Source: Rhodospirillaceae bacterium MC! (GTDB taxonomy: Bacteria > Pseudomonadota > Alphaproteobacteria > MC1). From it: 64,000 bases of DNA. The notes under the pieces were generated by a model that was given only the letters and a program-made list of their open reading frames with translations, was not told the DNA's origin and did no database searches. Shown here in pieces: positions 5,920 through 63,413 of this stretch (position 1 is its first letter; the number at the start of each line of letters is the position of its first letter). A program made the translations under genes and the position numbers. The stretch is from NCBI GenBank assembly GCA_002632265.1, contig NQOV01000011.1:38566-102565 (forward strand), given 5' to 3'.

Positions 5920-7878
5920 ATGTTTACAAGATACAGAACCCTAATATCGTTTAATATCTTTATGATCGTCATGTATACCGCTTTAAGATTTTTTTTACTG
6001 ATACATTCTCATATTGCATCAGGAATATCTTTTGCGGATATTATGCGTGTATTTGGTTTTGGTTTCATGTTTGATATGAGCTTTATCTTATATTTTAACA
6101 TTATCTTTTCTCTATTGTTTTTTATTATTCCTGATTTCCTATGGCAAACAAAAGTTATCCGTGGATTTATTCAGCTTCTATTATTTATCATGACATTTTG
6201 CATTGGTTTGGGCATGATCGCCGAAATCTTATTCTGGAATGAATTCCATGCAAGATTTAACTTTATTACAATCGATTCTTTAATATATACCAATACAGTA
6301 TTAAAAGATGTTTGGCACAACTATCATATCATATGGATTACTGCTATCCTTTTAGCTGTGGTTATTGTAGTATATTATCTGCTACAAAAGATATTTTTTA
6401 AGGTTTACAATCAACGCTCAACCTATATTTCAAGATTTCCCTATTTACTTATTTATATCATTCTCATAGGCGGATGTTTCCTGCTTGTGGATCAAGACGT
6501 ACGAGACGTTGTATCAGATGACTCTTATATATGTGAATTGGCGTCAAATGGTCCCTATCAACTCTTTTCGGCATTTAGAAACAACACAATTAACTTCTCT
6601 AAATTTTATAACACTTTAGATCCTAAACAAGCTAAAACCATAGTAGCTAAAGATATCATGGAATACAATTCCACCGATGTGGATTCATCTAGATTTGGGG
6701 TAGAGCGTAAAATCATAAATAATCCAAAACACTTACGTAAACCCAATTATAACGTGGTACTTATAACCGTTGAAAGCCTAAGTGCAAAGGATATGACATA
6801 CGCAGGACAAAAAGAAAACATCACTCCCTTTTTAGATACAGTATCTAAACAAAGTTACTTTTTCAACAACTTCTACGCCACAGGCACAAGAACAGTACGA
6901 GGCTTGGAAGCCATAACCCTTTCCATGCCCCCAACTCCAGGACGTTCCATTATTAAGCGAATCGGTTACCAATCAAAATGGAACTCTCTAGGGGGAATCT
7001 TACATGATAGGGGATACGATAGTGTCTTTTTCTACGGTGGCAAAGGCTTTTTCGATAATCTGAACGCTTTCTTTTTAGGCAACAAATATCGCAAATTCGA
7101 CGCAAATGACATGCCAGATAGTGAACCAGAAAATGCAAAAACATCATGGGGATATGCTGATGAATTCGTCTTTAAGCACATGATCAATCAAGCAAATAAC
7201 GATTATAAAAAGCACAAGCCTTTCTTTTTCCATATCATGACAACTTCCAATCATAAACCTTACACCATTCCATCAGGGCGGATCTCTCAAAAGGCTCGCT
7301 ATGATGCAGGTGGCGTCCTTAACCCTAGACACAGCACAGTAAAATATACAGATTGGGTCATTCATAACTTCATGGATAACGCCAAAAAACAACCGTGGTT
7401 TAAAAATACTATTTTCCTTATTCTAGCCGACCATACCAACCACGCATCAGGACACACAACTTTACCTATTTGGCGTTATCATATTCCTTTCATTATTTAC
7501 GCTCCAAGTATCATAAAACATCCTAGAACCATTAAGACCCTATCATCTCAAGTGGACGTAGCCCCAACCCTTTTAGGAATTCTAGGCTTTAACTACAATT
7601 CTACCTTTTTTGGTAAAAATATCCTAAACATGTCCAACCAACAAGGACGTGCTTTCATCTCCACATATCAAAAACTAGGATACATAGATCACAACAACAA
7701 CCTATCCGTACTAATGCCCAACTTCCACAACATAATCCACCTAACCCCCACCCCCCACCACCCTCTCACCAAACCCCAACAAAAATCCCTCCTAAACCTA
7801 ACCATATCCTACTACCAAAACGCCAGCGAAGTCTACACCCAACACAAAAAAGACACCAACAACCGCCTACTAAAATAA
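5920..7878 (+). CDS. LTA synthase / phosphoglycerol-transferase family membrane sulfatase-fold protein
   Basis: 652-aa ORF with several N-terminal hydrophobic helices, then an alkaline-phosphatase/sulfatase-type domain (VVLITVESLS, ILADHTNH). The last ~60 codons are a low-complexity P/T/H/Q tail in a strongly A/C-rich tract. Confidence 0.75.
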   Translation: MFTRYRTLISFNIFMIVMYTALRFFLLIHSHIASGISFADIMRVFGFGFMFDMSFILYFNIIFSLLFFIIPDFLWQTKVIRGFIQLLLFIMTFCIGLGMIAEILFWNEFHARFNFITIDSLIYTNTVLKDVWHNYHIIWITAILLAVVIVVYYLLQKIFFKVYNQRSTYISRFPYLLIYIILIGGCFLLVDQDVRDVVSDDSYICELASNGPYQLFSAFRNNTINFSKFYNTLDPKQAKTIVAKDIMEYNSTDVDSSRFGVERKIINNPKHLRKPNYNVVLITVESLSAKDMTYAGQKENITPFLDTVSKQSYFFNNFYATGTRTVRGLEAITLSMPPTPGRSIIKRIGYQSKWNSLGGILHDRGYDSVFFYGGKGFFDNLNAFFLGNKYRKFDANDMPDSEPENAKTSWGYADEFVFKHMINQANNDYKKHKPFFFHIMTTSNHKPYTIPSGRISQKARYDAGGVLNPRHSTVKYTDWVIHNFMDNAKKQPWFKNTIFLILADHTNHASGHTTLPIWRYHIPFIIYAPSIIKHPRTIKTLSSQVDVAPTLLGILGFNYNSTFFGKNILNMSNQQGRAFISTYQKLGYIDHNNNLSVLMPNFHNIIHLTPTPHHPLTKPQQKSLLNLTISYYQNASEVYTQHKKDTNNRLLK

Positions 7879-10975: not shown

Positions 10976-11938
10976 ATGAAACAATATATTACAATAATAA
11001 CAATAGCATGCTCGTTCTTTATCACTAATGCGTATGCCAACAGCAAGCCACATCAGATATCTAATCAACAGCTAAAAGAACAATGCGGAATCGGTGCTTC
11101 GGATCTTAAAACTCAAGTGGCTTGTGTTAAATCCTTTGCCAATAAAGGACAAGAAAAAGCCCAACTAACTTTAGGCTTACTATATTTCACAGGGAGCGGA
11201 GTCGATAAAAATTTAACTATCGGCTTAAAATGGTGGCTCAAAGCAGGATCGTACGGAAATTCACAAACAGAATATAATATCGGTCTTTTACTATTTAAAG
11301 GATCGTACGGCATTAAAAAGGATTATAAACAAGCCTTTAAATGGTGGAAAAAGTCCGCAGATCAAAACTTCGCCCCAGCCCAAAACGCTCTAGGTACTCT
11401 TTATCAACAAGGATACGGCGTTAAAAAAGATCTTCGCCAATCAGCCATATACTACACAAAAGCCTCTCGCCAAAGATATCCCGAAGCTCAAAACAATATC
11501 GGCGTTATGTATATGAAAGGTATAGGCGTTAAACAAGATGATAAAATAGCCTTTAAAGTGCTATTACAATCGGCATATGGTGGCTTTAGTCTTGGAGCTT
11601 ATAATGTCGGTTATATGTATGCTAACGGTCGTGGTGTGGCTAAAAGCCTAATACGTGCCTATGCGTGGTGGATGGTTGCCGTTAATAGCGGAGCAAGAAA
11701 CCTAAAACAAGACGATTTCAACACTCTAGCAAAAAACTTCTCAAAAAATCAACTGGAACAAGCGAAAATGCTAGCAGGAACTATCGAACGCCAAATCCAA
11801 AAAAATCTTACTTCCAAAAATTATCAACAACAACAAAAACAAAGCCAAAAACAAATCCAACGCCAAAAGATCCAACAAAATAAACCAACAAAAGATCTAG
11901 ACATAAATTCCGACTATGAAGAACCATACGATGGTTAA
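10976..11938 (+). CDS. secreted Sel1-repeat (SLR/TPR-like) protein
   Basis: 320-aa ORF with a signal peptide and repeated A-x-GxxxAQxxLGxxYxxGxGVxKD units. The Q-rich C-terminal tail lies in an A/C-rich tract. Confidence 0.8.
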   Translation: MKQYITIITIACSFFITNAYANSKPHQISNQQLKEQCGIGASDLKTQVACVKSFANKGQEKAQLTLGLLYFTGSGVDKNLTIGLKWWLKAGSYGNSQTEYNIGLLLFKGSYGIKKDYKQAFKWWKKSADQNFAPAQNALGTLYQQGYGVKKDLRQSAIYYTKASRQRYPEAQNNIGVMYMKGIGVKQDDKIAFKVLLQSAYGGFSLGAYNVGYMYANGRGVAKSLIRAYAWWMVAVNSGARNLKQDDFNTLAKNFSKNQLEQAKMLAGTIERQIQKNLTSKNYQQQQKQSQKQIQRQKIQQNKPTKDLDINSDYEEPYDG

Positions 11939-15296: not shown

Positions 15297-16511
15297 TTAT
15301 CGTAAGATGACTTCTACGGTTGGGTGGGAAAGCATGTCGTGGGCTAGGGATTTTATGTCGGGGGGGGTTACGTTGTTTACCATTTGTAAGATTTCTTGGG
15401 TGGAGAAGATTTTGTTGTGGTGGGTCCATTGGCGGACGATTTGTTCACAGCGAGATCCTGTTGATTCTAGAGCCATGACGATGGCGGATTGGGCTTGTTT
15501 TTTTGCTCGTTCTAGTTCTTCGGTGGTTGGTTCTTTTTCGGCGATTTTTTCTAGTTCGTTTTTCATGGAAGATAGGATTGTGTGGCTTTGTTGGGTTTCA
15601 CATCCTGCATACATTCCGAAGACGCCAAGATCTTCCCAAGCCCATATGAAAGAGTACACACTATAAGCCAAGCCTTGGACTTCTCGGATTTCTTGAAATA
15701 TACGAGAAGACATTCCTCCACCAAGAATACTACTAAGTAAGGATTGAGCATAAAATTCGCTCTGACGGTATGAATATCCTTTAAAGCCAATGAGAGAGTG
15801 GGCTTGTTCTAAGCCTTGTTTTTCTTTTATTAGCTTTCCACCGTTATATATGGCAGGATCTACCGCATGTTTTTTAGTTGTTGAAAGACCAGCGAATTTA
15901 TTTTCTACCATTGAGACTAAAAGATCATGATCAACATTACCAGTGGCTACCACCACCGCATTATTGGTATTATAATGATCTTCCATATAGCTTTTAATGT
16001 GATCTTTAGTAAAGCTTTCTACGGTTTCCTTTATTCCTAGAATTGATCTGCCTATGGGCTGATTATTAAAGGCCTGTTGAGCGAAAAGATCATAAACATA
16101 ATCGTCAGGATCGTCTATGGATTGCATGATCTCTTGAATAACGACCTTTTGTTCTCTTTCAAGTTCGCTATCTTCAAAGGTGGAGTTTAATAGGATATCT
16201 GCCAATAGATCGATTCCAATGTGAAGATCTTCCTTTAAAAGACGCACATAAAAGGCGGTGTTATCTCTTGATGTATAAGCGTTAATATAACCGCCTGTAT
16301 TTTCAATTTCGTCAACTATTTGTTTGGGAGATCTGCTTTTTGTTCCCTTAAATACCATGTGTTCAACAAAATGAGAAATGCCGTTATATTCTTTTGTCTC
16401 ACTACGAGAGCCGACATCAAACCATATGCCAGCACTTACGGTTTCTAGAGCTGGCATGTTATGAGAAATAATTGTTAAGCCAGTGTTTAGGCTTGTGATT
16501 TGTATACTCAT
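15297..16511 (-). CDS. M16 family zinc metallopeptidase (pitrilysin/processing-peptidase-like)
   Basis: 404-aa ORF with the inverted zinc motif HFVEH and M16 N- and C-domain-like sequence. Confidence 0.85.
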   Translation of the reverse strand: MSIQITSLNTGLTIISHNMPALETVSAGIWFDVGSRSETKEYNGISHFVEHMVFKGTKSRSPKQIVDEIENTGGYINAYTSRDNTAFYVRLLKEDLHIGIDLLADILLNSTFEDSELEREQKVVIQEIMQSIDDPDDYVYDLFAQQAFNNQPIGRSILGIKETVESFTKDHIKSYMEDHYNTNNAVVVATGNVDHDLLVSMVENKFAGLSTTKKHAVDPAIYNGGKLIKEKQGLEQAHSLIGFKGYSYRQSEFYAQSLLSSILGGGMSSRIFQEIREVQGLAYSVYSFIWAWEDLGVFGMYAGCETQQSHTILSSMKNELEKIAEKEPTTEELERAKKQAQSAIVMALESTGSRCEQIVRQWTHHNKIFSTQEILQMVNNVTPPDIKSLAHDMLSHPTVEVILR

Positions 16512-17394: not shown

Positions 17395-20300
17395 TTACAA
17401 GTGTTTTGATATTTCATCGCTTAAGCCTTCAATGAATTTCTTATCTGATTTGGGGGTTTTCACTAGATAGAAGTTATCAGAATCATACTCATTGGCAAGA
17501 TTTTTATATTGCATGCCTAATTCAACTAGATTTTCAATATTATCGCTAACAAAAGATATGGGAACAACAATCACAGGGGTTTTATCTTCGCATAGGGTTT
17601 TAATAACATCTTTAGTGGCAGGGGCTAGCCAATGCTTGCCTACTGCACTTTGATAACAGTTTTTATAATTTATCTTGTCATTAAATTCAGGGTGTAAAGA
17701 TAAAACCTTGTTCATTATGGCTTTTGTTGAGCCTATTACTTCTTTTTCATAAGGATCATGACGCTTTTCCACTAGCTTAATAGGTAAACTATGGGCAGAA
17801 AATAACACAACTGGATAGGTGCTTTTTTCTTCTAAACATTTGTTAATATTATGAATAACTTCATCAGCATAGAAGTTGACAAACTCTCGGTTTGTGTAGA
17901 AACTCTCAATACAATCGATTTTAACATCTTTAATTGATGAATCTGTTATTTGGCGGTTAAATTCATCAACAAAACTACCCGTAGTAGTGGTTGAATAATG
18001 TGGATAAAGTGGGAAAACAATCACATGATCAGGCTCAAACTCTGCCAATTCTTCAATCGCTTCTGCTATGGACGGGGTTAGATATCTCATGGCTGTAACA
18101 ACTTTGAATTCACAATCTTCATGTTTATTTATTAAAGCATCGTGGATGTTGGTTGCTTGCTCTAAGGTTTGTTCAATGTGTGGACTATGACCATCAACCT
18201 GCTCGTAAATCGCTTGGGATTTTTCCAGTCGCTTACCTGTGGTCGCAATTTTAGAAACGAACATTCTACCTAATTTGTTTAATCCTGTAACCGCCGAATC
18301 CGCAAACATCTCAAGCAAAAAGGCCTTAACATCATCCATACCCTTAGGCGAACCAAAACCACCTACAACAATGGCTATTTTTTTAGATTCTTGATCTATC
18401 GATACGTGCTTTTTCATTTCTTCCTCATTGTATTTTGCTTTCATAAATCCCGACCAAAGACTCGGATTTATACTCGCCTGCTGATAAACTTCCCCACCTT
18501 GAGACGGTTCTTCTATCTCGCTAGGCTGTGGGTCGGTAGATTGAATCTCGCTAGATTCTGGCTCGCTAGATTCTTGATTGTCTTTCTTGCTTAAACTGTC
18601 ATCCCCATTATTTAAAAGACTCTCAATCTCTTCCATAGCCACAACCTCAAACGGCTTTTCCTCTGGCTCTTCAGGTGCTGGCGGTTGTTCTGTTGGGATT
18701 TCATCAGCTGATGTTGGGTCATCGTCGGCTAGAGCCATTTCTGGGGCGTCTTCTAGGGGTGGCATTTCATCCATAGGGATTTCGTCGGCTGGGGTTGGGT
18801 CATCAGCTAGGGCGATTTCTGGGTCATCTTCTAGAGCTGGCATTTCTTCCATAGGGATTTCTTCGGATGATGTTGGGTCATCGGCTAGGGCCATTTCTGG
18901 GGTGTCTTCTAGGGGTGGCATTTCGTCCATAGGGATTTCGTCAGCTGGTGCTATATCATCAGTTAGGGCGATTTCTGGGGCGTCTTCTAGAATTGGCGAT
19001 TCATCCACAGGGATTTCGTCAGCTGGTGTTGGGTCATCAGCTAGGGCCATTTCTGGGGCGTCTTCTAGAGCTGGCATTTCATCCATAGGGATTTCGTCGG
19101 CTGGTGTTAGGTCATCAGCTAGAGCGATTTCTGATTCGTCTTCTAGAGCTGGCGATTCGTCCATTGGGGTTTCGTCAGCTGGTGCTATGTCATCAGTTAG
19201 GGCGATTTCTGGAGCGTCTTCTAGGATTGGCGATTCGTCCATTGGGATTTCGTCGGCTGGTGTTGGGTCATCAGCTAGAGCGATTTCTGGAGCGTCTTCT
19301 AGGGTTGGAACTTCTTCCATTATCATATCATCAGACGCAACACTTTTATTTAAAACCATTTCTGATTCTTCTTCTATTTCTGGCATTTCGTCCATTGGGG
19401 TTTCGTCGGCTGGTGTTAGGTCATCAGCTAGAGCGATTTCTGATTCGTCTTCTAGAGCTGGCGATTCGTCCATTGGGGTTTCATCGGATGATGTTAGGTC
19501 GTCGGCTAGGGCGATTTCTGATTCGTCTTCGGAGAATGGGGGGTCTTCGGGTAGGTATAGTTTCATGGTGTTTGATGAAACGGATTTTTGGAATTCTAGG
19601 GCTTCTTCTGTGATTGGGGCGTTGTGTTTTTCGATTCTTTCTTGTAGTTTTTGAATTATGTTTTCGCTAACTGTTGAGGTTTCATCATCTGATGTTATGT
19701 CATCATCGAGAGCAATTTCTTGGTCATCTTCTAGGATTGGAGATTCGTCCATAGGAATTTCGTCGGATGATGTTAGGTCGTCATCGAGAGACATTTCTGG
19801 GGCGTCTTCTAGAGCTGGCATTTCTTCCATAGGAATTTCATCGGCTGATGTTAGGTCATCATCGAGAGCGATTTCTGGATCGTCTTCTAGGATTGGGGAT
19901 TCGTCCATAGGAATTTCGTCGGCTGGTGTTAGGTCATCATCGAGAGCGATTTCTGGATCGTCTTCTAGGATTGGCATTTCATCCATAGGGATTTCGTCAG
20001 CTGGTGTTAGATCCTCATCGAGAGCGATTTCTGATTCGTCTTCTAGAGCTGGCATTTCTTCCATAGGGATTTCGTCAGCTGGTGTTAGGTCGTCATCGAG
20101 AGCCATTTCTGATTCATCTTCTAGAGCTGGCATTTCATCCATAGGGATTTCGTCGGCTGGTGTTAGGTCATCGTCGAGAGACATTTCTGGGGCGTCTTCT
20201 AGAGCTGGCATTTCATCCATAGGGATTTCGTCGGTTGGTGTTAGGTCATCGGCTAGGGCGATTTCTGGGGTGTCTTCTAGAGCTGGCATTTCATCCATAG

Positions 20301-22998
20301 GGATTTCTTCGTCTGATGTTAGGTCATCATCGAGAGACATTTCTGGGGCGTCTTCTAGAGCTGGCATTTCATCCATAGGGATTTCTTCGTCTGATGTTAG
20401 GTCATCATCGAGAGACATTTCTGGGGCGTCTTCTAGGGGTGGCATTTCATCCATAGGGATTTCTTCGGATAATGTTAGGTCATCGTCGAGAGCGATTTCT
20501 GATTCGTCTTCTAGAGCTGGCATTTCGTCCATAGGGATTTCTTCGGCTGGTGTTGGGTCATCGTCGAGAGCGATTTCTGATTCGTCTTCTAGAGCTGGCA
20601 TTTCATCCATTGGGATTTCGTCGGCTGGGGTTAGGTCATCGTCGAGAGACATTTCTGGGGCGTCTTCTAGGGGTGGCATTTCATCCATTGGGATTTCGTC
20701 GGCTGATGTTAGGTCGTCATCGAGAGACATTTCTGGGGCGTCTTCTAGAGCTGGCATTTCATCCATAGGGGTTTCGTCGGCTGATGTTGGGTCATCATCA
20801 AGAGCGATTTCTTGATCATCTTCTAGAGCTGGCGATTCGTCCATAGGGATTTCGTCGGTTGGTGTTGGGTCATCATCGAGAGACATTTCTGAAGCGTCTT
20901 CTAGAGCTGGCATTTCGTCCATAGAGATTTCTTCGGCTGATGTTAGGTCGTCATCGAGAACCATTTCTGATTCGTCTTCTAGAGCTGGCATTTCATCCAT
21001 TGGGATTTCGTCGGCTGGTGTTAGGTCATCGTCGAGAGACATTTCTTGGTCATCTTCTAGGATTGGAGATTCATCCATTGGGATTTCGTCGGGTGGGGTT
21101 AGGTTTTCGATGTCGGTTGCTAGTTCGTCTGCGGTTGGGGGTGTTGAGTCTAGGATTTGGTTTTGTAGGGCTTGGATTGTGTCGTCGCTTGCGAATGGGG
21201 TTAAGCTTTCGATTTCGTTGGCTTGGGCGTCGTCGCTTAATGGGATCGAATCTTCTAGAATTTTATTTTGTAAGGCTTGGATTGTGTCATCGCTTACGAA
21301 TGGAGTTAGGTTCTCTATTTCGTTGGCTTGTTCGTATTCGCTTAATAGAGCTGAATCTTCTAGGATTTGGTTTTGTAAAGATTGGATTGTGTCATCGCTT
21401 ACGAATGGGGTTAAGCTTTCGATTTCGTTGGCTTGGGCGTCGTCGCTTAATGGGATAGAATCTTCTAGAATTTTATTTTGTAGGGCTTGGATTGTGTCAT
21501 CGCTTACGAATGGGGTTAGGTTTTCGATTTCATTGGCTTGTTCGTATTCGCTTAATGGAGCTGAATCTTCTAGGATTTGGTTTTGTAAAGATTGGATTAC
21601 ATCATCGCTTACGAATGGGGTTAGGTTTTCGATTTCATTGGCTTGTTCGTATTCGCTTAATGGAGCTGAATCTTCTAGAATTTGGTTTTGTAAAGATTGG
21701 ATTACATCGTCGCTTACGAATGGAGTTAGGTTTTCGATTTCGTTGGCTTGTTCGTATTCGCTTAATGGAGCTGAATCTTCTAGGATTTGGTTTTGTAAGG
21801 CTTGGATTGTGTCATCGCTTACGAATGGAGTTAGGTTCTCTATTTCGCTGGCTTGTTCGTATTCGCTTAATGGGGCTGAATCTTCTAGAATTTGGTTTTG
21901 TAAAGATTGGATTACATCATCGCTTACGAATGGAGTTAGGTTCTCTATTTCGCTGGCTTGTTCGTATTCACTTAATGGGGCTGAATCTTCTAGGATTTGG
22001 TTTTGTAAGGCTTGGATTGTGTCATCGCTTACGAATGGAGTTAGGTTTTCGATTTCGTTGGCTTGTTCGTATTCGCTTAATGGGGCTGAATCTTCTAGGA
22101 TTTGGTTTTGTAAAGATTGGATTACATCATCGCTTACGAATGGAGTTAGGTTCTCTATTTCGCTGGCTTGTTCGTATTCGCTTAATGGGGCTGAATCTTC
22201 TAGGATTTGGTTTTGTAAAGATTGGATTACATCATCGCTTACGAATGGAGTTAGGTTCTCTATTTCGTTGGCTTGTTCGTATTCGCTTAATGGAGTGTCG
22301 CCTTGGGTTGGGGTGGTGGAGTATACTATGTTTTTGAATTTATCTGCAAGGTTGTTTTCGGCGGTGGTTTTTTGTTGGGCGTGTTGTTTTACCGCCTGAT
22401 CTAAAAGGTGCATGTGTTTATCGGCAAGAGTGCTTTCTTTACCTGTGTGGGCGATATCGTGAACATTGGTTTCAAGATAAGCTTTGATTTTTGATATTAT
22501 GGTATCTATTTTTTTATCGGAAATTGGTTTTTCTTCGTAAACTATTTCTACTGGCGGTTTAGCTGGTTGGGGCTGTGGAGCAGGTGCAGGATCTGCAGAT
22601 TGTGCAGATTGTTTTAATTCTTCGGCTTGTAATTTACGTGCTTGTAGTTCGGCTTTTACCAGGGCTATTTCCGCTTGATAACGTCTATCACGGACGATAC
22701 CGTCGTGAACTTTTTGTGATAAGGCTGGGTTGCTATCGATAATATGGGTAACTTCTTCTATGGTTTCCTTATGAAGTAATTTTTTTTCTTCTTCTTCGAT
22801 TTTGCCTGCTAGGGGTTTGTAGGCGTCGTAATAATTGTTGATGTTAACATCAGAGGCCTCCAAAGCCTCTTCTAGGACTGGAGTATCTACGTTAAGATCG
22901 TAAAAATGGACTCCTGCTTCAATATTTTCAGGAGCTTTTTCTTTAGGTTCTACTTCTAAATCATAGAAATCATCAATATTTACTTTTTTATCAGTCAT
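17395..22998 (-). CDS. hemH: giant acidic tandem-repeat protein fused in frame to ferrochelatase
   Basis: 1867-aa uninterrupted ORF. The C-terminal ~340 aa is ferrochelatase-like (KKIAIVVGGFGSPKG...VKAFL, SAHSLP). An internal ATG at 18417-18415 preceded by GAGGAAGAA could yield free HemH. Confidence 0.75.
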   Translation of the reverse strand: MTDKKVNIDDFYDLEVEPKEKAPENIEAGVHFYDLNVDTPVLEEALEASDVNINNYYDAYKPLAGKIEEEEKKLLHKETIEEVTHIIDSNPALSQKVHDGIVRDRRYQAEIALVKAELQARKLQAEELKQSAQSADPAPAPQPQPAKPPVEIVYEEKPISDKKIDTIISKIKAYLETNVHDIAHTGKESTLADKHMHLLDQAVKQHAQQKTTAENNLADKFKNIVYSTTPTQGDTPLSEYEQANEIENLTPFVSDDVIQSLQNQILEDSAPLSEYEQASEIENLTPFVSDDVIQSLQNQILEDSAPLSEYEQANEIENLTPFVSDDTIQALQNQILEDSAPLSEYEQASEIENLTPFVSDDVIQSLQNQILEDSAPLSEYEQASEIENLTPFVSDDTIQALQNQILEDSAPLSEYEQANEIENLTPFVSDDVIQSLQNQILEDSAPLSEYEQANEIENLTPFVSDDVIQSLQNQILEDSAPLSEYEQANEIENLTPFVSDDTIQALQNKILEDSIPLSDDAQANEIESLTPFVSDDTIQSLQNQILEDSALLSEYEQANEIENLTPFVSDDTIQALQNKILEDSIPLSDDAQANEIESLTPFASDDTIQALQNQILDSTPPTADELATDIENLTPPDEIPMDESPILEDDQEMSLDDDLTPADEIPMDEMPALEDESEMVLDDDLTSAEEISMDEMPALEDASEMSLDDDPTPTDEIPMDESPALEDDQEIALDDDPTSADETPMDEMPALEDAPEMSLDDDLTSADEIPMDEMPPLEDAPEMSLDDDLTPADEIPMDEMPALEDESEIALDDDPTPAEEIPMDEMPALEDESEIALDDDLTLSEEIPMDEMPPLEDAPEMSLDDDLTSDEEIPMDEMPALEDAPEMSLDDDLTSDEEIPMDEMPALEDTPEIALADDLTPTDEIPMDEMPALEDAPEMSLDDDLTPADEIPMDEMPALEDESEMALDDDLTPADEIPMEEMPALEDESEIALDEDLTPADEIPMDEMPILEDDPEIALDDDLTPADEIPMDESPILEDDPEIALDDDLTSADEIPMEEMPALEDAPEMSLDDDLTSSDEIPMDESPILEDDQEIALDDDITSDDETSTVSENIIQKLQERIEKHNAPITEEALEFQKSVSSNTMKLYLPEDPPFSEDESEIALADDLTSSDETPMDESPALEDESEIALADDLTPADETPMDEMPEIEEESEMVLNKSVASDDMIMEEVPTLEDAPEIALADDPTPADEIPMDESPILEDAPEIALTDDIAPADETPMDESPALEDESEIALADDLTPADEIPMDEMPALEDAPEMALADDPTPADEIPVDESPILEDAPEIALTDDIAPADEIPMDEMPPLEDTPEMALADDPTSSEEIPMEEMPALEDDPEIALADDPTPADEIPMDEMPPLEDAPEMALADDDPTSADEIPTEQPPAPEEPEEKPFEVVAMEEIESLLNNGDDSLSKKDNQESSEPESSEIQSTDPQPSEIEEPSQGGEVYQQASINPSLWSGFMKAKYNEEEMKKHVSIDQESKKIAIVVGGFGSPKGMDDVKAFLLEMFADSAVTGLNKLGRMFVSKIATTGKRLEKSQAIYEQVDGHSPHIEQTLEQATNIHDALINKHEDCEFKVVTAMRYLTPSIAEAIEELAEFEPDHVIVFPLYPHYSTTTTGSFVDEFNRQITDSSIKDVKIDCIESFYTNREFVNFYADEVIHNINKCLEEKSTYPVVLFSAHSLPIKLVEKRHDPYEKEVIGSTKAIMNKVLSLHPEFNDKINYKNCYQSAVGKHWLAPATKDVIKTLCEDKTPVIVVPISFVSDNIENLVELGMQYKNLANEYDSDNFYLVKTPKSDKKFIEGLSDEISKHL
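18690..21095 (-). repeat. 78-bp (26-aa) coding tandem repeat, roughly 29 units, one unique interruption near 19515-19700
   Basis: Period measured directly (GGCATTTC.TCCATAGGG at 18761 and 18839). The unit encodes DDDLTPADEIPMDEMPALEDAPEMSL. Confidence 0.9.
21150..22293 (-). repeat. 102-bp (34-aa) coding tandem repeat, about 11 units
   Basis: The unit encodes PLSEYEQANEIENLTPFVSDDVIQSLQNQILEDSA. Two alternating variants (VIQSL and TIQAL) are visible. Confidence 0.9.
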
Positions 22999-23026: not shown

Positions 23027-23572
23027 CTATTTTTTAAAGCCAAAGATACCTTTTATGCCACTAAAGAACCCAAAGCCTTTTTTTGCTTTGTGTTCTAAAG
23101 CTTCATTCACATCGGCAGTAAATATATTAGTGTTAAAAAGATCAACACCAACGTTATCCACCACCGTTTCAACAGGATTATTTTTCATTGTATCATTAAT
23201 TGACGCATTTTCCAACAAGTTTTTATAACGAACTATTTTTTCTTTAGCGTCCTTACTTAAATGTGATAGATCTACAGACGGTTTTTCATCGGCTATTCCA
23301 TACATTGGCACAGAAATACTCTGCGAATTTTCTAGGGGTAGAATGGGGTTGTTAATGTTTTCGTCGTCAGATAACTCTTCAGTATATTTAATTTGTTTTA
23401 CTCCTAAAACTTTCTTAAATCTAAAGCCGATTTTTTCTCTCACATGAGTGTTTGATCTAATGTTGCGTTTTTGCGAGTAGAAATCAATTTTTTCTTTACG
23501 GGTGTTTTCTTTTTCGTAATTTACGATAATTTCATCGTTGTAAAAATCATCTATTAGGCTTGCTTTTGTCAT
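23027..23572 (-). CDS. hypothetical protein
   Basis: 181-aa ORF immediately upstream of the giant ORF. It shares the N-terminal IDDFY...FY module with it. Confidence 0.55.
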   Translation of the reverse strand: MTKASLIDDFYNDEIIVNYEKENTRKEKIDFYSQKRNIRSNTHVREKIGFRFKKVLGVKQIKYTEELSDDENINNPILPLENSQSISVPMYGIADEKPSVDLSHLSKDAKEKIVRYKNLLENASINDTMKNNPVETVVDNVGVDLFNTNIFTADVNEALEHKAKKGFGFFSGIKGIFGFKK

Positions 23573-26344: not shown

Positions 26345-26640
26345 CCGTTATGGTTTTCCTTTGTGGTTGCCGTTATAAGTTTACCGTTGTAGATTTCCGT
26401 GATAGCTTTCCGTGATAGCTTTCCGTTATAGATTTCCGTGATAGCTTTCCGTTATAGATTTCCGTTGTAGCTTTCCTTTATAGTTTTCCGTTATAGATTT
26501 CCGTTGTAGTTTTACGTTGTAGATTTCCGTTGTAGTTTTACGTTGTAGATTTCCGTTATAGCTTTCCGTTATAGCTTTCCGTTATAAGTTTACTGTTATG
26601 GTTTTCCGTTGTGGTTTATCTTTATGGTTACTGTTCTATC
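26345..26640. repeat. 13-bp tandem repeat array (CCGTTATAGMTTT), about 23 units
   Basis: Unit starts counted at 13-nt spacing from 26397 to 26592, with 12/14-nt irregular units at both edges. Confidence 0.9.
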
Positions 26641-26740: not shown

Positions 26741-27062
26741 GAGAGAAATGTAGTGAGATGTGCTTATAAACGGTATGCCGTGTACTTAATACCTACACTA
26801 GTACCGCTTACAAGTGCAGATAGCCCACCTATCACAATCCTGTAGGATTGGGAGAAATGGGCTAAGGTGTGCCTTAACTTAGGGCGACGTGTACTCACGT
26901 CTACATAAGCCCTAAAGTAAGGTACAGATAACCCACCTATCACAATCCGCAAGCTTTAAGATTGGGAGAAATGGGATAAGGTGTGCCTTACCTTAGGGCG
27001 ACGTGTACTCACGTCTACATAAGCCCTAAGGTAAGGTGCAGATTAGCCCATTTATCCCAATC
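26741..27062. repeat. three tandem ~100-bp long imperfect palindromes
   Basis: Units at 26741-26839 (diverged), 26845-26947 and 26960-27062. Arms GATTGGGAGAAATGGG...CCTTAGGGC and GCCCTAAGG...CCCATTTATCCCAATC flank a GACGTGTACTCACGTC centre. The last base abuts the surA stop codon. Confidence 0.9.
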
Positions 27063-31305: not shown

Positions 31306-32316
31306 ATGAAATTATTACTTGAAACATTATCTAATAAGCAAGGATTACCAACGCCCATATGGTTCATGAGGCAAGCAGGCAGATATTTACCAGAATATTT
31401 AGAGCTAAGAAAAACCACTCCCAACTTCTTAGATTTTTGTTACGATCCTAAAAAAGCGTGCGAAGCTGCATTACAACCTTTAAGAAGATTTGATCTTGAC
31501 GCATCAATTTTATTTTCCGATATCTTAGTAATTCCCCACGCTTTAGGGCAAGAGGTTACATTCGAAAAAAATATTGGTCCCAAACTTAAGCCCATAACAA
31601 AAATAGAAGATTTAAAAAGTTTAAGAAAAAACGAATCCATATTAAATCCCATATTTGAAACAGTATCAAACATCAAGCATAATTTAAAAGATCATCAAGC
31701 ATTAATCGGCTTCAGCGGTAGTCCATGGACCTTAGCTTGTTATATGATCAACGGTCAAGGTTCAAGAGATTATGCAAATGTTCGAGAAATAGCCCTAAAA
31801 GATCCAAACTTTTTTGATTATCTAATGAATACCCTTATTGAAATCATATGTAATTATCTTTCACAGCAAATTCAAGCAGGAGCAGAAGTCATTCAACTAT
31901 TCGACAGTTGGGCAGGAGTATTAAGCGAAAAATTATTTTTAAAATATTCCTTAGAACCCAATAAGAAAATCATCGCATATCTAAAGAATCGTCATCCGCA
32001 AATCCCCATAATCGGATTCCCAAAAGGTGTAGGACAAAATATCCTAGAATTCACAAACCAAACCCAAGCCGACGCCGTAGGATTAGATAGCTCTTTCTCC
32101 ATAAATTGGATAAACCAAAACCTAAACCACACAGTAACCCAAGGCAATCTAGATAACATAAGCCTACTAGTAGGTGGCGAACAAATGGAACAAGATATCA
32201 TAAATATCAAAAAAATCAAATCCCCTCACATCTTTAACCTAGGACACGGAATCCTACCAACAACCCCAATAAAAAATGTCGAAAAAATGATTGAAATGGT
32301 TAAGGGAATTATATAA
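31306..32316 (+). CDS. hemE: uroporphyrinogen decarboxylase
   Basis: 336-aa ORF with the signature PIWFMRQAGRYLPEY. Confidence 0.92.
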   Translation: MKLLLETLSNKQGLPTPIWFMRQAGRYLPEYLELRKTTPNFLDFCYDPKKACEAALQPLRRFDLDASILFSDILVIPHALGQEVTFEKNIGPKLKPITKIEDLKSLRKNESILNPIFETVSNIKHNLKDHQALIGFSGSPWTLACYMINGQGSRDYANVREIALKDPNFFDYLMNTLIEIICNYLSQQIQAGAEVIQLFDSWAGVLSEKLFLKYSLEPNKKIIAYLKNRHPQIPIIGFPKGVGQNILEFTNQTQADAVGLDSSFSINWINQNLNHTVTQGNLDNISLLVGGEQMEQDIINIKKIKSPHIFNLGHGILPTTPIKNVEKMIEMVKGII

Positions 32317-32973
32317 ATGATTATTTGTTACGGAGATTCTAACACTTGGGGTTATAATCCTTTAGTGGTTAATAGTAGATACAAGGTAGAAGATATTTAC
32401 ACTACCATTTTAAAGAATATATTTATGGAAGAGGGTTTTAAAAGGGTTAAGGTTTTAAACAGGGGGATGCCTGCTCGTTGTGCTAGTTCTGATGTTCTAG
32501 AGCCATATAAAGACGGTTACACGCCATTTAAAAACGAGTTTAGCGATTATAACAAGGAAGTTAACTTATTTATTATTATGCTAGGAACAAACGACGTAAA
32601 ACTCAACAAAACAGCCAAAGAGATTTCGGCAGATATTAAAAAGCTTATGGATATAATCATCGATAATAGTAAGATTAAGAATATTTTAATAATATCGCCG
32701 TCGCCATTGAAGAAGTTGGATTACGATAATTTACCGCAAGGTCAGATTCCTTATGATCTTTTTTATAATGATGAAAGCCATGTTCAGACATCGCAAGATT
32801 TAGCAAATGAGCTAGAAAATTTATGTGAAAGTTATCAAGATAAAGTACATTTTTTAAACGGTGCTAATTTATGGGAAACCTCCAACCAAGACGGTATTCA
32901 TTTAGAACCCCATTCCCATAGAAAAATCGCACAAGAGATATATAATTTTTGTATATCTAATAGTATCATTTAG
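32317..32973 (+). CDS. SGNH/GDSL-family hydrolase
   Basis: 218-aa ORF with block I YGDSNTWG and block V DGIHL; starts at the base after the hemE stop. Confidence 0.7.
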   Translation: MIICYGDSNTWGYNPLVVNSRYKVEDIYTTILKNIFMEEGFKRVKVLNRGMPARCASSDVLEPYKDGYTPFKNEFSDYNKEVNLFIIMLGTNDVKLNKTAKEISADIKKLMDIIIDNSKIKNILIISPSPLKKLDYDNLPQGQIPYDLFYNDESHVQTSQDLANELENLCESYQDKVHFLNGANLWETSNQDGIHLEPHSHRKIAQEIYNFCISNSII

Positions 32974-36183: not shown

Positions 36184-36430
36184 TCTTATCAGACGGTCGC
36201 TCTCTTTGGTTTGGTTGTTGCCCTGCTCGAGCGGAGGTCTTGACAGACGGTCGCCCTGCTCGAGCGGAGGTCTTGACAGACGGTCGCTCTACTCGAGCGT
36301 AGGTCTTAACAGACGGTTGCCCTACTCGGGCGTAGGTCTTAACAGACGGTTGCCCTGCTCGGGCGGAGGTCTTGACAGACGGTCCAAACATAGCATGTTT
36401 GATCGCATGTTAGAGTTAGGATTTAGGCTG
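36184..36430 (+). repeat. tandem amplification of the core-family repeat (33-bp unit, four copies, plus flanking partial and full copies)
   Basis: GTCTTGACAGACGGTCGCCCTGCTCGAGCGGAG and variants at 36237, 36270, 36303 and 36336. A terminal long-form copy starts at 36369. Confidence 0.92.
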
Positions 36431-42837: not shown

Positions 42838-44040
42838 ATGAAAAGAATCACAATCACAGCTTTAATATTATCCATATGCACACTGCCAAGTATAACCCTA
42901 GCTCATACGGATATAACACATATTGATAAAACACACATTAAAGATCAAGCCATAGAATCATGCTTAAAGGAGAAAACTCCAAATATATGTATGCACAATC
43001 TAGCCATAAAAAATAATATCCAAGCTCAAGCAGATTTGGGAATTATGTATTATCATGTTAAAGGTAAGGAAAAACAAAATTATAAACAGGCTTTATATTG
43101 GTTCAAAAAATCAGCACTAAAAGGGAATGCTCAAGCTCAAAATAATCTGGGAATTATGTATTATTATGGCTATGGAATAAAACAAGATTATAAAAAAGCC
43201 TTATATTGGTTTACAAAATCCCTAAAACAAAACAATTCAGACGCTCAAAATAATATGGGAGAAATGTATTATTTTGGCAATAATGCAGTAAAACAAAATT
43301 ATAAAACCTCTTTAGATTGGTATAGAAAATCAGCTAAGCAAAATAATTCGGATGCTCAATATCACATAGCTATAATGTATGATAACGGTAACGGAGTAAA
43401 ACAAGATGAAAAGATCGCTCTGGATTGGTATTTAAAATCTGCAAAAAATGGCAACGCCAACGCTCAATTTCAAATGGGTATTATCTATGATAATGGTAAC
43501 GGAGTAAAACAAGATTACGTCAAAGCCGCATCTTGGTATTTAAAATCAGCAAAACAAAACAACGCAAAAGCTCAAAATAATCTTGCGATCATCTATAAAA
43601 ACGGCAAAGGCAGAATAAAAAAAGATATGCTCTTTGCTTTGCAAATGTTTATGCAATCGGCAAAGCTCGGCAATATAACCGCTCAAATTAATTTAGCCAA
43701 TGAAGAATACAACGGTATAGATATGGAAATAAATTATAAACAAGCCTTATATTGGTATCTAAAAGCCGCTCAAAAAGGCAACGCAGACGCTCAAGCAAAC
43801 GTAGGATATATGTACAAAACCGCAAGAGGAACAAAACTCAATTATAAAAAAGCTTTCTATTGGTATCTAAAATCTGCAAAACAAGGCAATAAATATGCCG
43901 AATTCCACCTAGCCACCCTATACGATTACGGTAACGGCGTAAAACCCAACAAAAAACAAGCCTTATACTGGTACAAAAAATCCGCCAAGCAAGGTATAAA
44001 AGACGCTCAAGAGAATATATCTCTCTTAAATATAAACTAA
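42838..44040 (+). CDS. secreted Sel1-repeat protein (about 9 SLR units)
   Basis: 400-aa ORF with a signal peptide and repeated AQxNLGxMYxxGxGVKQDYxKAxxWYxKSAxQGN units. Confidence 0.85.
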   Translation: MKRITITALILSICTLPSITLAHTDITHIDKTHIKDQAIESCLKEKTPNICMHNLAIKNNIQAQADLGIMYYHVKGKEKQNYKQALYWFKKSALKGNAQAQNNLGIMYYYGYGIKQDYKKALYWFTKSLKQNNSDAQNNMGEMYYFGNNAVKQNYKTSLDWYRKSAKQNNSDAQYHIAIMYDNGNGVKQDEKIALDWYLKSAKNGNANAQFQMGIIYDNGNGVKQDYVKAASWYLKSAKQNNAKAQNNLAIIYKNGKGRIKKDMLFALQMFMQSAKLGNITAQINLANEEYNGIDMEINYKQALYWYLKAAQKGNADAQANVGYMYKTARGTKLNYKKAFYWYLKSAKQGNKYAEFHLATLYDYGNGVKPNKKQALYWYKKSAKQGIKDAQENISLLNIN

Positions 44041-53104: not shown

Positions 53105-57137
<4,033 letters not shown>

Positions 57138-60566: not shown

Positions 60567-61259
60567 ATGGAATATACATCTGAAGTACAAAATATGTGCC
60601 CACTAACATTGGCAGAAGGTCATGGACCTTCGCCGATTCCTGAAGAAGGAAAGTGGGTTGAATCGAAACAAATCTCTGATATCTCTGGTTTATCTCATGG
60701 TGTTGGTGGTTGTGCACCACGTCAAGGTGCGTCAAAGTTAACTCTAAATGTTAAAAATGGTATTATTGAAGAAGCTCTAATCGAAACAATCGGTTGTTCT
60801 GGAATGACTCACTCGGCGGCTATGGCTGGCGAAATCTTACCAGGCAAAACTTTGTTAGAAGCTTTAAACACAGATTTAGTCTGTGATGCTATCATGGTAG
60901 CAATGAAAGACATTTTCCAACAATTGGCATATGGTCGTTCTCAAACCGCCTTTTCTGAAGGTGGTTTACCTATTGGTGCAGGTCTTGAAGATCTTGGTAA
61001 AGGTCTACGTTCTATGGTTGGTACAGTTCATTCAACACGTGAAAAAGGTGCTCGCTGGTTAGAATTAACAGATGGTTACATCGTTGAGCTTGGTCTTGAT
61101 AAGAATAAAGAAACTATCGGTTATAAATTCTTACGTATTGGCCCTATGCTTGAAGCTATCAAAGCGGGTAAAGATCCGAAAGAAGCTTACGAAAGTAACC
61201 TTGCAACATATGGTCAGTTCGACAACGCTGTTGAAACCATTGACCCACGTCATAAGTAA
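60567..61259 (+). CDS. NifU/IscU N-terminal-like Fe-S scaffold-domain protein
   Basis: 230-aa ORF. GVGGCAP...LTLNVKNGIIEEALIETIGCSGMTHSAAMAGEIL resembles the IscU Cys-containing blocks. Strong SD (GAGGAAAG). Confidence 0.6.
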   Translation: MEYTSEVQNMCPLTLAEGHGPSPIPEEGKWVESKQISDISGLSHGVGGCAPRQGASKLTLNVKNGIIEEALIETIGCSGMTHSAAMAGEILPGKTLLEALNTDLVCDAIMVAMKDIFQQLAYGRSQTAFSEGGLPIGAGLEDLGKGLRSMVGTVHSTREKGARWLELTDGYIVELGLDKNKETIGYKFLRIGPMLEAIKAGKDPKEAYESNLATYGQFDNAVETIDPRHK

Positions 61260-61277
61260 TAGAGGAGATTATATATT

Positions 61278-62288
61278 ATGTCTGATAATAAAGAATTGTT
61301 TGAATCTTACGGTCGTCGTATTTCTAAAATCGAACCAATTTTAAAAGAATTAGGATTCTCTTCTATCGAAGAAACTCTTGATTATTGTAAAGAAAAGGGC
61401 GTTGATCCTTATCAAATTACAGAAGAAACCCAAAATATTGCTTTTGAGAATGCTAAATGGGCTTACACATTAGGAGCGGCTATTGCTCTTAAATCTGGTG
61501 TAAAAACCGCAGCTGAAGCAGCAGAAAAAATCGGTGAAGGCTTACAAGCTTTTTGTATTCCAGGTTCTGTAGCTGATAGTCGTAAAGTTGGTATTGGTCA
61601 TGGTAATTTAGGTGCTATGTTACTTCGTGAAGAAGCAGAATGTTTCGCTTTCCTAGCTGGTCACGAATCTTTCGCTGCTGCCGAGGGTGCGATTAAAGTA
61701 GCTCTAAACGCTAACAAAGCACGTAAGCAACCATTACGTGTGGTTCTTAATGGTCTTGGTAAAGATGCCGCTTACATTATCGCTCGTGTTAACGGATTCA
61801 CATATGTGGAAACTAAATACGATTATACTACAGGCGTTTTAAGCGTAGTTAAAGAACGTAAATTCTCTGACGGTCCTCGTGCTGATATTAAATGTTACGG
61901 TGCTAAAGACGTTCGTGAGGGCGTTGCGATTATGCAAGAAGCTAAAGTTAATGTTTCTATTACTGGTAACTCAACAAACCCAACACGTTTCCAACATCCT
62001 GTTGCAGGTATTTACAAAAAGCTTTCTCAAGCAGACGGCTTTAAATACTTCTCTGTAGCATCAGGTGGCGGTACTGGTCGTACTCTACACCCTGATAACG
62101 TTGGTGCTGGTCCTTCTTCTTACGGTTTAACAGATACTATGGGTCGTATGCACTGCGACGCACAATTCGCTGGTTCATCTTCTGTACCTGCTCACGTGGA
62201 AATGATGGGCTTAATCGGTATGGGTAACAACCCAATGGTAGGTTGTACCGTAGCCGTAGCCGTAGCCGTAGAACAAGCAACTAAATAA
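61278..62288 (+). CDS. GGGtGRT-motif protein (uncharacterised family)
   Basis: 336-aa ORF containing SGGGTGRTLHP; strong SD (AGGAG). The family name is recalled from Pfam/NCBI naming and was not searched. Confidence 0.6.
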   Translation: MSDNKELFESYGRRISKIEPILKELGFSSIEETLDYCKEKGVDPYQITEETQNIAFENAKWAYTLGAAIALKSGVKTAAEAAEKIGEGLQAFCIPGSVADSRKVGIGHGNLGAMLLREEAECFAFLAGHESFAAAEGAIKVALNANKARKQPLRVVLNGLGKDAAYIIARVNGFTYVETKYDYTTGVLSVVKERKFSDGPRADIKCYGAKDVREGVAIMQEAKVNVSITGNSTNPTRFQHPVAGIYKKLSQADGFKYFSVASGGGTGRTLHPDNVGAGPSSYGLTDTMGRMHCDAQFAGSSSVPAHVEMMGLIGMGNNPMVGCTVAVAVAVEQATK

Positions 62289-63270: not shown

Positions 63271-63413
63271 AAGATTAAGAGAAAAATCGTAAGATGTACC
63301 TTGGGCGACGTGTACTCACGTCTACATAAGTTCTAGTTTAAAGTGCAGATTAGTTCTACTCACGTCTACATAAGCTCTAGTTTAAGGTGCAGATTAGTCC
63401 ATTTATCACAATC
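63271..63413. repeat. long-palindrome element (same family as 26741-27062) with duplicated right arm
   Basis: GATTAAGAGAAAAATCG...GGGCGACGTGTACTCACGTCTACATAAG...GTGCAGATTAG, then a repeat of CTACTCACGTCTACATAAGCTCTAG...GCAGATTAGTCCATTTATCACAATC. The last base abuts the dut stop codon. Confidence 0.85.

Follow-up and report, generated by a model that had tools for sequence, protein, structure and literature searches.

A single open reading frame joins acidic tandem repeats to a ferrochelatase in an alphaproteobacterial genome

We analyzed a 64,000-nucleotide (nt) stretch of DNA from Rhodospirillaceae bacterium MC! (contig NQOV01000011.1, positions 38,566 to 102,565; hereafter the window, in whose coordinates all positions are given). 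On its minus strand, positions 17395-22998 form one open reading frame (ORF) of 1867 amino acids (aa) plus a stop codon, with no internal stop codon, in which a unique N-terminal region, an array of 35-aa units, two blocks of 26-aa units, and a complete ferrochelatase (HemH) follow one another (Table 1). The product of the full ORF would have a mass of 207 kDa, a computed pI of 4.05, 30% Asp plus Glu, and 40 repeat units. The first-pass annotation of this DNA had proposed a stop-free ORF of four parts, an architecture that both the ORF scan and our parsing of the protein uphold. Its count of 11 units in the first array also stands, but their length is 35 aa, not the 34 aa given there. Similarly, it had claimed roughly 29 repeats of 26 aa, and we find 29 units of ~26 aa, which the parsing further divides into two blocks split by a 67-aa insert.

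Judged by its sequence, the C-terminal module is a protoporphyrin ferrochelatase of the HemH family, and it is predicted to be catalytically competent. Specifically, Pfam PF00762 matches residues 1540-1866 with an E value of 9.5e-78 and 261.8 bits (cut-off 27), covering profile positions 1-316 of 317, and the last 340 aa score 230.2 bits against the NCBIfam equivalog TIGR00109 (hemH; cut-off 124.6). This full-profile match confirms the earlier claim of an in-frame join to a complete ferrochelatase with the motif SAHSLP. In the alignment to human FECH, the catalytic His (human H263, FSAHSLP) and Glu (human E343, SDNIENL) are kept, and the position of human H341 is occupied by Asn, as it is in Ehrlichia canis (SENSETL). 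Counted from the internal methionine M1528, the module comprises 340 aa (38.5 kDa), homologues being usually 311-370 aa long. The nearest homologues are 36-40% identical and come from uncultured Alphaproteobacteria and Anaplasmataceae; the C-terminal Cys-rich [2Fe-2S] tail is absent here, whereas such a Cys-rich tail is present in the Anaplasmataceae sequences retrieved.

The 1527 residues that precede this module are encoded by DNA that behaves as coding sequence. In the ORF frame, there are no stops in the N-terminal region, the 67-aa insert, or the linker before HemH, whereas the other two sense frames hold 18 and 22, 4 and 5, and 5 and 8 stops, respectively. From the stop frequencies of those other frames, the chance of an open linker is ~0.001, and that of an open N-terminal region is ~1e-9. 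Within the arrays, units differ from one another about twice as often at codon position 3 as elsewhere. In the ORF frame, the ratio of nonsynonymous to synonymous differences per site (pN/pS; Nei-Gojobori) is 0.25 among the 35-aa units and 0.49 among the 26-aa units, compared with 0.83-1.43 when the sense frame is shifted. Values of 0.34 and 0.51 in the antisense frame that shares its wobble positions with the ORF are as expected. In addition, four pairs of 35-aa units encode the same protein and lie 2-5 silent nt apart. The excess at position 3 and the silent changes between protein-identical units argue that the arrays have been kept by selection on the protein.

These data also bear on the age of the repeats, which had been described as near-identical and attributed to recent expansion or ongoing homogenization. 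In the DNA, the units are not near-identical: pairwise differences range from 1 to 26 per 105 nt among the 35-aa units and from 3 to 23 per 78 nt (mean 12.8) among the 26-aa units. Recent expansion or homogenization is likewise contradicted by a synonymous divergence among units of 0.24-0.29 against a nonsynonymous divergence of 0.07-0.15, and by the silent differences between units of identical protein sequence. From this pattern of substitution, the repeat arrays look moderately old and under purifying selection on the protein. The codon usage of the appendage is native, with a GC content at third codon positions (GC3) of 0.36 compared with 0.33 ± 0.03 in 22 other window genes. The local rise in GC content (45-48%) is due to first codon positions and reflects amino acid composition, namely the many codons for Asp, Glu, Ala, and Pro. 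Since the codon usage is native, the appendage is not a recent foreign insert.

Table 1. Features of the fusion locus in window coordinates
Feature	Position	Strand	Residues of the ORF	Description
Unique N-terminal region	22294-22998	-	1-235	Acidic
35-aa array	21139-22293	-	236-620	11 tandem units, consensus PLSEYEQANEIENLTPFVSDDTIQSLQNQILEDSA; net charge -85
Transition unit and 26-aa block I	19711-21138	-	621-1096	18 units in all, LDDDLTPADEIPMDEMPALEDAPEMS type
Unique 67-aa insert	19510-19710	-	1097-1163	Separates the two 26-aa blocks
26-aa block II	18652-19509	-	1164-1449	11 units, LADD... type; net charge -101
78-aa linker	18418-18651	-	1450-1527	Acidic
Shine-Dalgarno-like GAGGAAGAA	18418-18426	-		Immediately 5' of the internal ATG (M1528)
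HemH module	17395-18417	-	1528-1867 and stop	
Orphan 181-aa ORF	23027-23572	-		Upstream of the giant ORF

At the DNA level, Tandem Repeats Finder (TRF) detects two arrays, one with a period of 105 nt at 21149-22295 (10.9 copies, 89-90% matches) and one with a period of 78 nt at 18693-21104 (30.3 copies); higher-order periods of 156, 234, and 315 nt are also present. The 26-aa units proper of block I occupy residues 629-1096; this block has 40% Asp plus Glu, 13% Pro, and a net charge of -192. Block II includes one decayed 25-aa unit and one 27-aa unit among its 11, the insert between the blocks holds TVSENIIQKLQERIEKHNAP, which resembles a decayed unit of the 35-aa type, and in the linker a short segment of 30 nt is duplicated at 18515-18572. 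Shuffling gave no significant support for descent of the 35-aa and 26-aa units from a common ancestor (DNA p 0.07, protein p 0.27).

The composition of the appendage is extreme. Residues 1-1527 carry a net charge of -421 and consist of 30% Asp plus Glu, 3% Lys plus Arg, and 10% Pro, with no Cys and nine Gly. In the 26-aa units, Asp accounts for 20% of the residues, Glu for 18%, Pro for 14%, and Met for 8%; the motif M-x-x-M occurs 19 times, and the net charge of the array is close to -300. In the N-terminal region, a long helix is predicted at approximately residues 91-134, followed by a Pro/Ala/Gln-rich stretch. The highest 19-residue Kyte-Doolittle mean of the whole protein is 1.27 and lies inside HemH; with no hydrophobic segment, the protein has neither a signal peptide nor a membrane helix.

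Homology searches assigned the appendage to no known family. Its segments match no Pfam or NCBIfam family, and Ferrochelatase is the sole above-threshold Pfam match in the 1867-aa protein. Sub-threshold Pfam and NCBIfam matches to the 35-aa array (DUF3475, Tim44, SHLD1_C, PTS IIB, and others) were rejected because weak scores had been summed over repeats and no single stretch passed, bar one weak exception. No Pfam match to TPR, Sel1, PPR, or HEAT repeats was found in the appendage at E ≤ 1, nor was there a match to the TAL_effector repeat profile at the same threshold; each 35-aa unit has a net charge close to -8, in contrast to the basic units of transcription activator-like effectors. A search of 5.8 billion proteins, in which only the 8000 candidates sharing the most words were scored, returned no homologue of the 1527-aa appendage at E ≤ 1e-3, except for an extensin-like match (P0121) that was rejected as compositional.

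For residues 1-305, an exhaustive phmmer search was run against 1.84 billion representatives. One match, a coiled-coil, low-complexity repeat protein (P0122), was rejected. The search gave one credible lead (P0123; library-wide E 1.4e-5, pairwise BLASTP 1e-21), a metagenomic protein of 346 aa in which an HTH_3 domain precedes EIxxLAPFLSxExLxxL repeats that are 28 and 35 aa long. Its repeats, which look helical, share with our 35-aa unit both the period and the motif E-I-x-x-L-x-P-F-x-S-x-x-x-L/I-x-x-L, and the profiles of the two repeats align with an hhalign probability of 94.5%. Unlike the appendage, however, the protein is small and nonacidic, and it is unannotated and found on a single 1.4-kb contig, so the resemblance gives the type of repeat and not its function.

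Structure prediction points in the same direction for the 35-aa units. Run without an alignment on seven units, AlphaFold returned a confident helical-hairpin solenoid in one of five models, with a predicted local distance difference test (pLDDT) score of 86 and helices of 11 and 15 residues. When this model was compared with the PDB by Foldseek, the best matches were TPR and mitoribosomal helical-repeat proteins, none of them significant (E at least 0.048, template modeling score at most 0.37). A model of the N-terminal 235 aa was discarded on account of its pLDDT of 43.6. With low confidence, we take the 35-aa array to be a helical scaffold and the 26-aa arrays to be a long disordered polyanionic tract, both cytoplasmic and either attached to the enzyme or coproduced with it.

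The hemH side of the fusion is present in a second assembly. A draft contig (L001; GCA_002632305.1, NQOW01000013.1) matches the window from 19170 to 6531, with a 23-nt indel near 7786 as the sole difference, and independently confirms hemH, the linker, and ~7 of the 26-aa units in one frame. In this contig, 251 in-frame residues of linker and repeats precede hemH without a stop, and the junction of repeats and hemH is reproduced exactly. The contig ends inside the repeats, at 19170, and cuts short its own gene call there, a partial product of 591 aa; the gene that precedes the giant ORF is found on a separate draft contig of 167 kb, so that the draft splits the fusion gene. Because the draft breaks inside the array, only the window assembly supports the number of units and the link between 19170 and the N-terminal part. 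The hemH-side partial product of the draft is absent from the protein collection, and the same presumably holds for the other half. Exact look-ups of the full ORF, of its 340-, 350-, and 413-aa variants, and of MlaF, MlaE, HemE, and GyrB matched no gene record either. The indel itself (window ~7763-7786) lies in G-rich DNA at the 3' end of ORF 5920-7878 (plus strand), which encodes a sulfatase-family protein; the predicted C-terminus of this protein is altered as a result, its length being 652 aa in the window and 664 aa as called in the draft.

Within the ORF, the start of the HemH module is marked by an ATG at 18417-18415 (M1528), which is preceded by GAGGAAGAA at 18426-18418, with a GAGG core 5 nt from the ATG. 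An internal ATG with a Shine-Dalgarno (SD)-like site at the normal HemH N-terminus had already been pointed out, and we confirmed both its coordinates and the canonical 340-aa length of the resulting product. A second ATG, at 18636-18634 in the linker (M1455), has GAGG 8 nt upstream and would give a product of 413 aa. In a scan for AGGA, GGAG, or GAGG, one of which lies upstream of about half of the window genes, these two were the only ATGs with an SD-like site among the 72 in-frame ATGs of the ORF. Since an SD-like site coincides at M1528 with a product of canonical HemH length, a second, free HemH started internally at this position is plausible.

On the minus strand from 23187 to 18417, which includes the linker and the repeats, no promoter-like or terminator-like site was found. 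Promoter candidates are located upstream of and within the 181-aa ORF that precedes the giant ORF, with a promoter-like site at 23627-23598, and the two ORFs are probably cotranscribed. The 181-aa ORF has no family match and ends in an amphipathic Gly/Phe/Lys-rich tail, KKGFGFFSGIKGIFGFKK. Its N-terminus, MTKASLIDDFYNDE...IDFY, resembles that of the giant ORF, MTDKKVNIDDFYDLE...VHFY; the motif IDDFY.xE is common to both, and in both a second FY follows 21 residues after the first. With a BLASTP E value of 0.14 and a shuffle p of ~0.013, this shared N-terminal motif is suggestive only.

The position of hemH in the genome is unusual as well. In the loci of its nearest homologues (L082, L083), the gene order is hemE-hemH-hemJ-rho. 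In the window, hemE (uroporphyrinogen decarboxylase; 31306-32316, plus strand) is abutted by a GDSL-lipase gene (31306-32973 together) and not by hemH or hemJ, and hemH lies 8 kb away on the opposite strand, between the 181-aa orphan ORF and an ABC-2 permease gene. Since hemE is followed by the lipase gene and hemH is found elsewhere, hemH has changed its place, which makes the fusion a derived condition. The ancestral haem operon no longer exists intact in this genome. The GyrB of this organism shares no more than 67% identity with any other sequence (best matches in Terasakiella, Magnetospirillum, and Thalassospira), which identifies it as a deep-branching alphaproteobacterium without sequenced close relatives.

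Altogether, we consider it moderately probable that the locus is a genuine, intact fusion gene, in which a lineage-specific polyacidic repeat protein is joined to a complete ferrochelatase, the full-length protein is made, an internal start is probably used in addition, and the appendage has a scaffold or spacer role. The continuity of the ORF, the coding constraint on its repeats, the native codon usage, the intact HemH, and the relocation of the gene are shown by the sequence, whereas production of the full-length protein, use of the internal start, and any role of the appendage are proposals. In this scenario, hemH moved out of the ancestral hemE-hemH-hemJ operon to a place behind the repeat-coding sequence. 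With no stop codon and no promoter-like or terminator-like site apparent between the repeats and hemH, ribosomes starting at M1 would read on to the hemH stop and produce a 207-kDa cytoplasmic protein with a pI of 4. Ribosomes translating this selected repeat region would meet no stop before hemH and should run on into it, from which we infer that the fusion protein should be made. The SD-like site and ATG at M1528 would probably also start a normal 340-aa HemH on the same mRNA. The appendage, kept by selection, may work through its 35-aa array as a helical protein-binding scaffold, and the Pro/Asp/Glu/Met-rich, probably disordered 26-aa array may act as a polyanionic spacer or cation-binding tract on the enzyme.

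Several observations weigh against this interpretation. The continuity of the array from 19170 to the N-terminal part depends on a single assembly. No relative with the fusion was found when genome contigs were scanned with HemH, when metagenome contigs were scanned with the N-terminus and HemH, or in the protein searches. The M1 start, whose ATG comes 28 nt past the stop of the 181-aa ORF, has no well-placed SD site. In addition, the GAGG before M1528 lies within a Glu-rich NEEE stretch, where GAG and GAA codons raise the chance of its occurrence. Finally, the solenoid appeared in only one of the five AlphaFold models and had no significant structural match.

A further, more specific role for the 26-aa array is conceivable, although improbable. 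The array could serve as a tethered metal antenna that captures, buffers, or selects Fe2+, or excludes competing metals, and passes the iron to the active site, with the 35-aa array docking the complex to a partner. The idea derives only from composition, that is, from the Asp/Glu/Met content, the M-x-x-M motifs, and the charge. If it were correct, the enzyme would carry within its own chain, in the form of the 26-aa array, a functional counterpart of frataxin's acidic ridge.

The alternatives differ in which part of the fusion they call into question. Two genes could share one ORF, a possible but unlikely arrangement in which the working HemH would be the internal 340-aa (M1528) or 413-aa (M1455) product, the repeat protein would have an unrelated role, and the fusion would be incidental and tolerated, and maybe cleaved or degraded, a stop having been lost or never acquired after hemH landed. 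This would account for the SD-like site and ATG at the canonical HemH N-terminus, rare as such sites are in the ORF (2 of 72 in-frame ATGs), and it agrees with the relocation of hemH, with the sizes of other ferrochelatases (271-587 aa among 120 listed homologues, 270-683 aa in a survey; PMC8529089) and, as context only, with an M16 processing-type peptidase gene located two genes downstream. However, the 78-codon linker is open, which has a chance of ~0.001, and it is acidic like the repeats, with a composition that is not intergenic. Moreover, no internal promoter-like site was found, and ribosomes on a selected repeat region must enter hemH, which makes the fusion unavoidable. Even less of the upstream DNA would matter if its 4.6 kb were an untranslated satellite or dead gene, open by accident, with hemH alone expressed. 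The repeat arrays are indeed open in several other frames, with plus-strand ORFs of 358-429 aa, but the position-3 excess and the pN/pS of 0.25-0.49 are confined to the ORF frame and the wobble-matched antisense frame, protein-identical units differ silently, and the unique segments are open in this frame only, all of which leaves an accidental ORF barely credible. An assembly artefact, in which the arrays were mis-joined or collapsed so that the 26-aa block next to hemH and the N-terminal part that holds the 35-aa array came from different genes or had the wrong copy number, is very improbable. It is true that the draft breaks within the 26-aa array at 19170, that the upstream gene sits on a different draft contig (167 kb), and that higher-order periods of 156, 234, and 315 nt are hard to assemble. 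Yet the draft contig by itself places hemH behind 251 stop-free in-frame residues, blocks I and II belong to the same 26-aa family and are anchored by the unique insert and the unique transition unit between the 35-aa and 26-aa arrays, and every unit is a multiple of 3 nt, so that errors in copy number would leave the frame intact.

The remaining alternative concerns where the protein acts. The fusion could be a secreted, effector-like tandem repeat protein (TRP) similar to the acidic TRPs of Ehrlichia, with the ferrochelatase as cargo or carrier. In its favor, strong acidity (pI ~4) and restriction to one lineage are traits that the repeats share with type 1 secreted TRPs (PMC3417381). The high AT content and the Sel1-repeat proteins give the genome a host-associated look, and Anaplasmataceae are among the nearest named HemH homologues. 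Against this, a signal peptide and a transmembrane segment are absent, the appendage is not Gly-rich (9 Gly in 1527 aa), unlike RTX repeats, no sequence similarity to any TRP was found in the search of 5.8 billion proteins with 8000 candidates scored, and no secretion-system genes, HlyB/HlyD/TolC-type included, were found among the scanned ORFs of the 64-kb window. The type 1 secretion signal of TRPs is uncleaved and C-terminal, lies in the last 27-50 aa, and is rich in the residues LDAVTSIF (PMC3417381); in our protein, the C-terminus, where such a signal would lie, is a folded enzyme. The last 50 aa, which are part of the HemH fold, contain 50% LDAVTSIF residues, compared with 52 ± 9% in 22 other window proteins; because this content equals the background, the measure does not discriminate. 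Type 4 secretion signals are likewise C-terminal. On these sequence features, secretion or surface display is disfavored, and an effector role of this kind is highly doubtful.

Regarding the organism, the genome is AT-rich (~35% GC) and keeps tryptophan, folate-branch, and shikimate enzymes, and we infer that the organism is probably host-associated. Two Sel1-repeat proteins, encoded at 10976-11938 and 42838-44040 (plus strand) with 4 and 8 repeats detected, fit such a lifestyle. The M16 (insulinase/processing-peptidase) gene two genes downstream of the fusion occupies 15297-16511 on the minus strand; the M16 family includes a peptidase that strips N-terminal presequences from mitochondrial ferrochelatase.

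Other parts of the window also carry repeats. The ORF for an NAD-dependent DNA ligase (54741-57137, plus strand), whose listed TTG start is probably too far upstream, has two in-frame low-complexity inserts, especially at 55286-55337 (15-nt unit, 3.5 copies), which suggests that this genome tends to grow in-frame repeats inside essential genes. A 15-nt motif, TCTTGACAGACGGTC, which contains TTGACA, occurs in six copies (13780, 30863, 30894, 36238, 36271, and 36370), all on the plus strand and apparently outside the listed ORFs, with none expected by chance. At 36220-36384, it lies within an array of five 33-nt copies. The motif may act as a promoter or operator, or it may be a short repeat scattered through the DNA. 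A second dispersed element, containing TACTCACGTCTACATAAGC, forms intergenic tandem pairs at 26817-27062 and 63313-63398 (plus strand; four copies, none expected), and a 13-nt array of 20 copies lies beside the first of these sites (26345-26610). Between 36800 and 42614, mnmG (minus strand) and rsmG-parA-parB (plus strand) diverge around a gene-poor stretch of 26% GC at 38.7-40.1 kb, a divergence that is typical near a replication origin. A weakly NifU-like ORF is followed at 60567-62288 (plus strand) by a gene of the GGGtGRT family (Pfam E 8.6e-185), and the two form a conserved pair.

Ferrochelatase is the last enzyme of haem synthesis, and its known versions carry short tails, targeting peptides, or one pathway partner at most. 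Among the extensions on record, a selected polyanionic domain of 1527 residues would be both the largest and the most unusual. If the fusion is active, it would offer a natural test of iron delivery to the enzyme and of the N-terminal load that the enzyme tolerates. If HemH instead starts internally, the locus would be a clear bacterial case of an essential enzyme translated inside a giant ORF, and a caution for annotation pipelines, which would name a 207-kDa repeat protein "ferrochelatase". Since short-read drafts split such genes at contig ends, similar fusions may be undercounted.

Compared with known systems, the fusion combines two familiar elements. Its C-terminal 340 aa resemble a canonical bacterial HemH in the full profile match, the catalytic His and Glu, and the normal length from M1528, whereas canonical HemH has no 1527-aa N-terminal appendage and, in the nearest homologues, is encoded within hemE-hemH-hemJ. 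The appendage shares with Ehrlichia TRP32, TRP47, TRP75, and TRP120 (PMC3417381, PMC8112483) lineage-specific acidic tandem repeats (pI ~4), the lack of a signal peptide, and membership of the same broad group, but those TRPs have a C-terminal secretion signal and no enzyme domain, and no sequence similarity to them was found in the search of 5.8 billion proteins. A second likeness is found in iron biology. MamJ of Magnetospirillum, the cytoplasmic adaptor between magnetosome and filament, has a central acidic repetitive domain rich in Glu, Pro, and Ala. Like the appendage, it is a cytoplasmic alphaproteobacterial protein with acidic tandem repeats and a tie to iron biology, but no enzyme is fused to MamJ and no homology was found in the same search. 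By sequence comparison, the appendage resembles TRP effectors and MamJ in style only.

Among ferrochelatases themselves, the 1867-aa ORF lies outside the known size range: a survey of 482 ferrochelatases spans 270-683 aa, the longest being the HemH-ChdC fusion of Cutibacterium acnes (PMC8529089), and our 120 listed homologues span 271-587 aa. These ranges support the remark in the first-pass annotation that no ferrochelatase with a comparable appendage was known, and our literature searches found no report of a ferrochelatase with acidic repeats. The long outlier among the homologues, a 587-aa metagenomic HemH (P0068), has an N-terminal extension that is hydrophobic and not acidic. Known fusions and extensions comprise C. 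acnes HemH-ChdC, the C-terminal chlorophyll a/b-binding (CAB) domain of plants and cyanobacteria, and the N-terminal targeting peptides of eukaryotes (PMC8529089); by Pfam, neither a ChdC nor a chlorophyll a/b-binding partner domain was found in the 1867-aa protein. Together with the metagenomic outlier, these fusions resemble our ORF in that the enzyme tolerates added N- or C-terminal segments, but here the partner is neither a haem-pathway enzyme nor a membrane anchor or targeting peptide; it is a repeat protein four times as large as the enzyme. Such a partner is found in no known ferrochelatase fusion, and the layout has not previously been described for this enzyme, with the repeats seen so far in one organism; enzyme fusion and lineage-specific acidic repeats are nevertheless each of a known kind.

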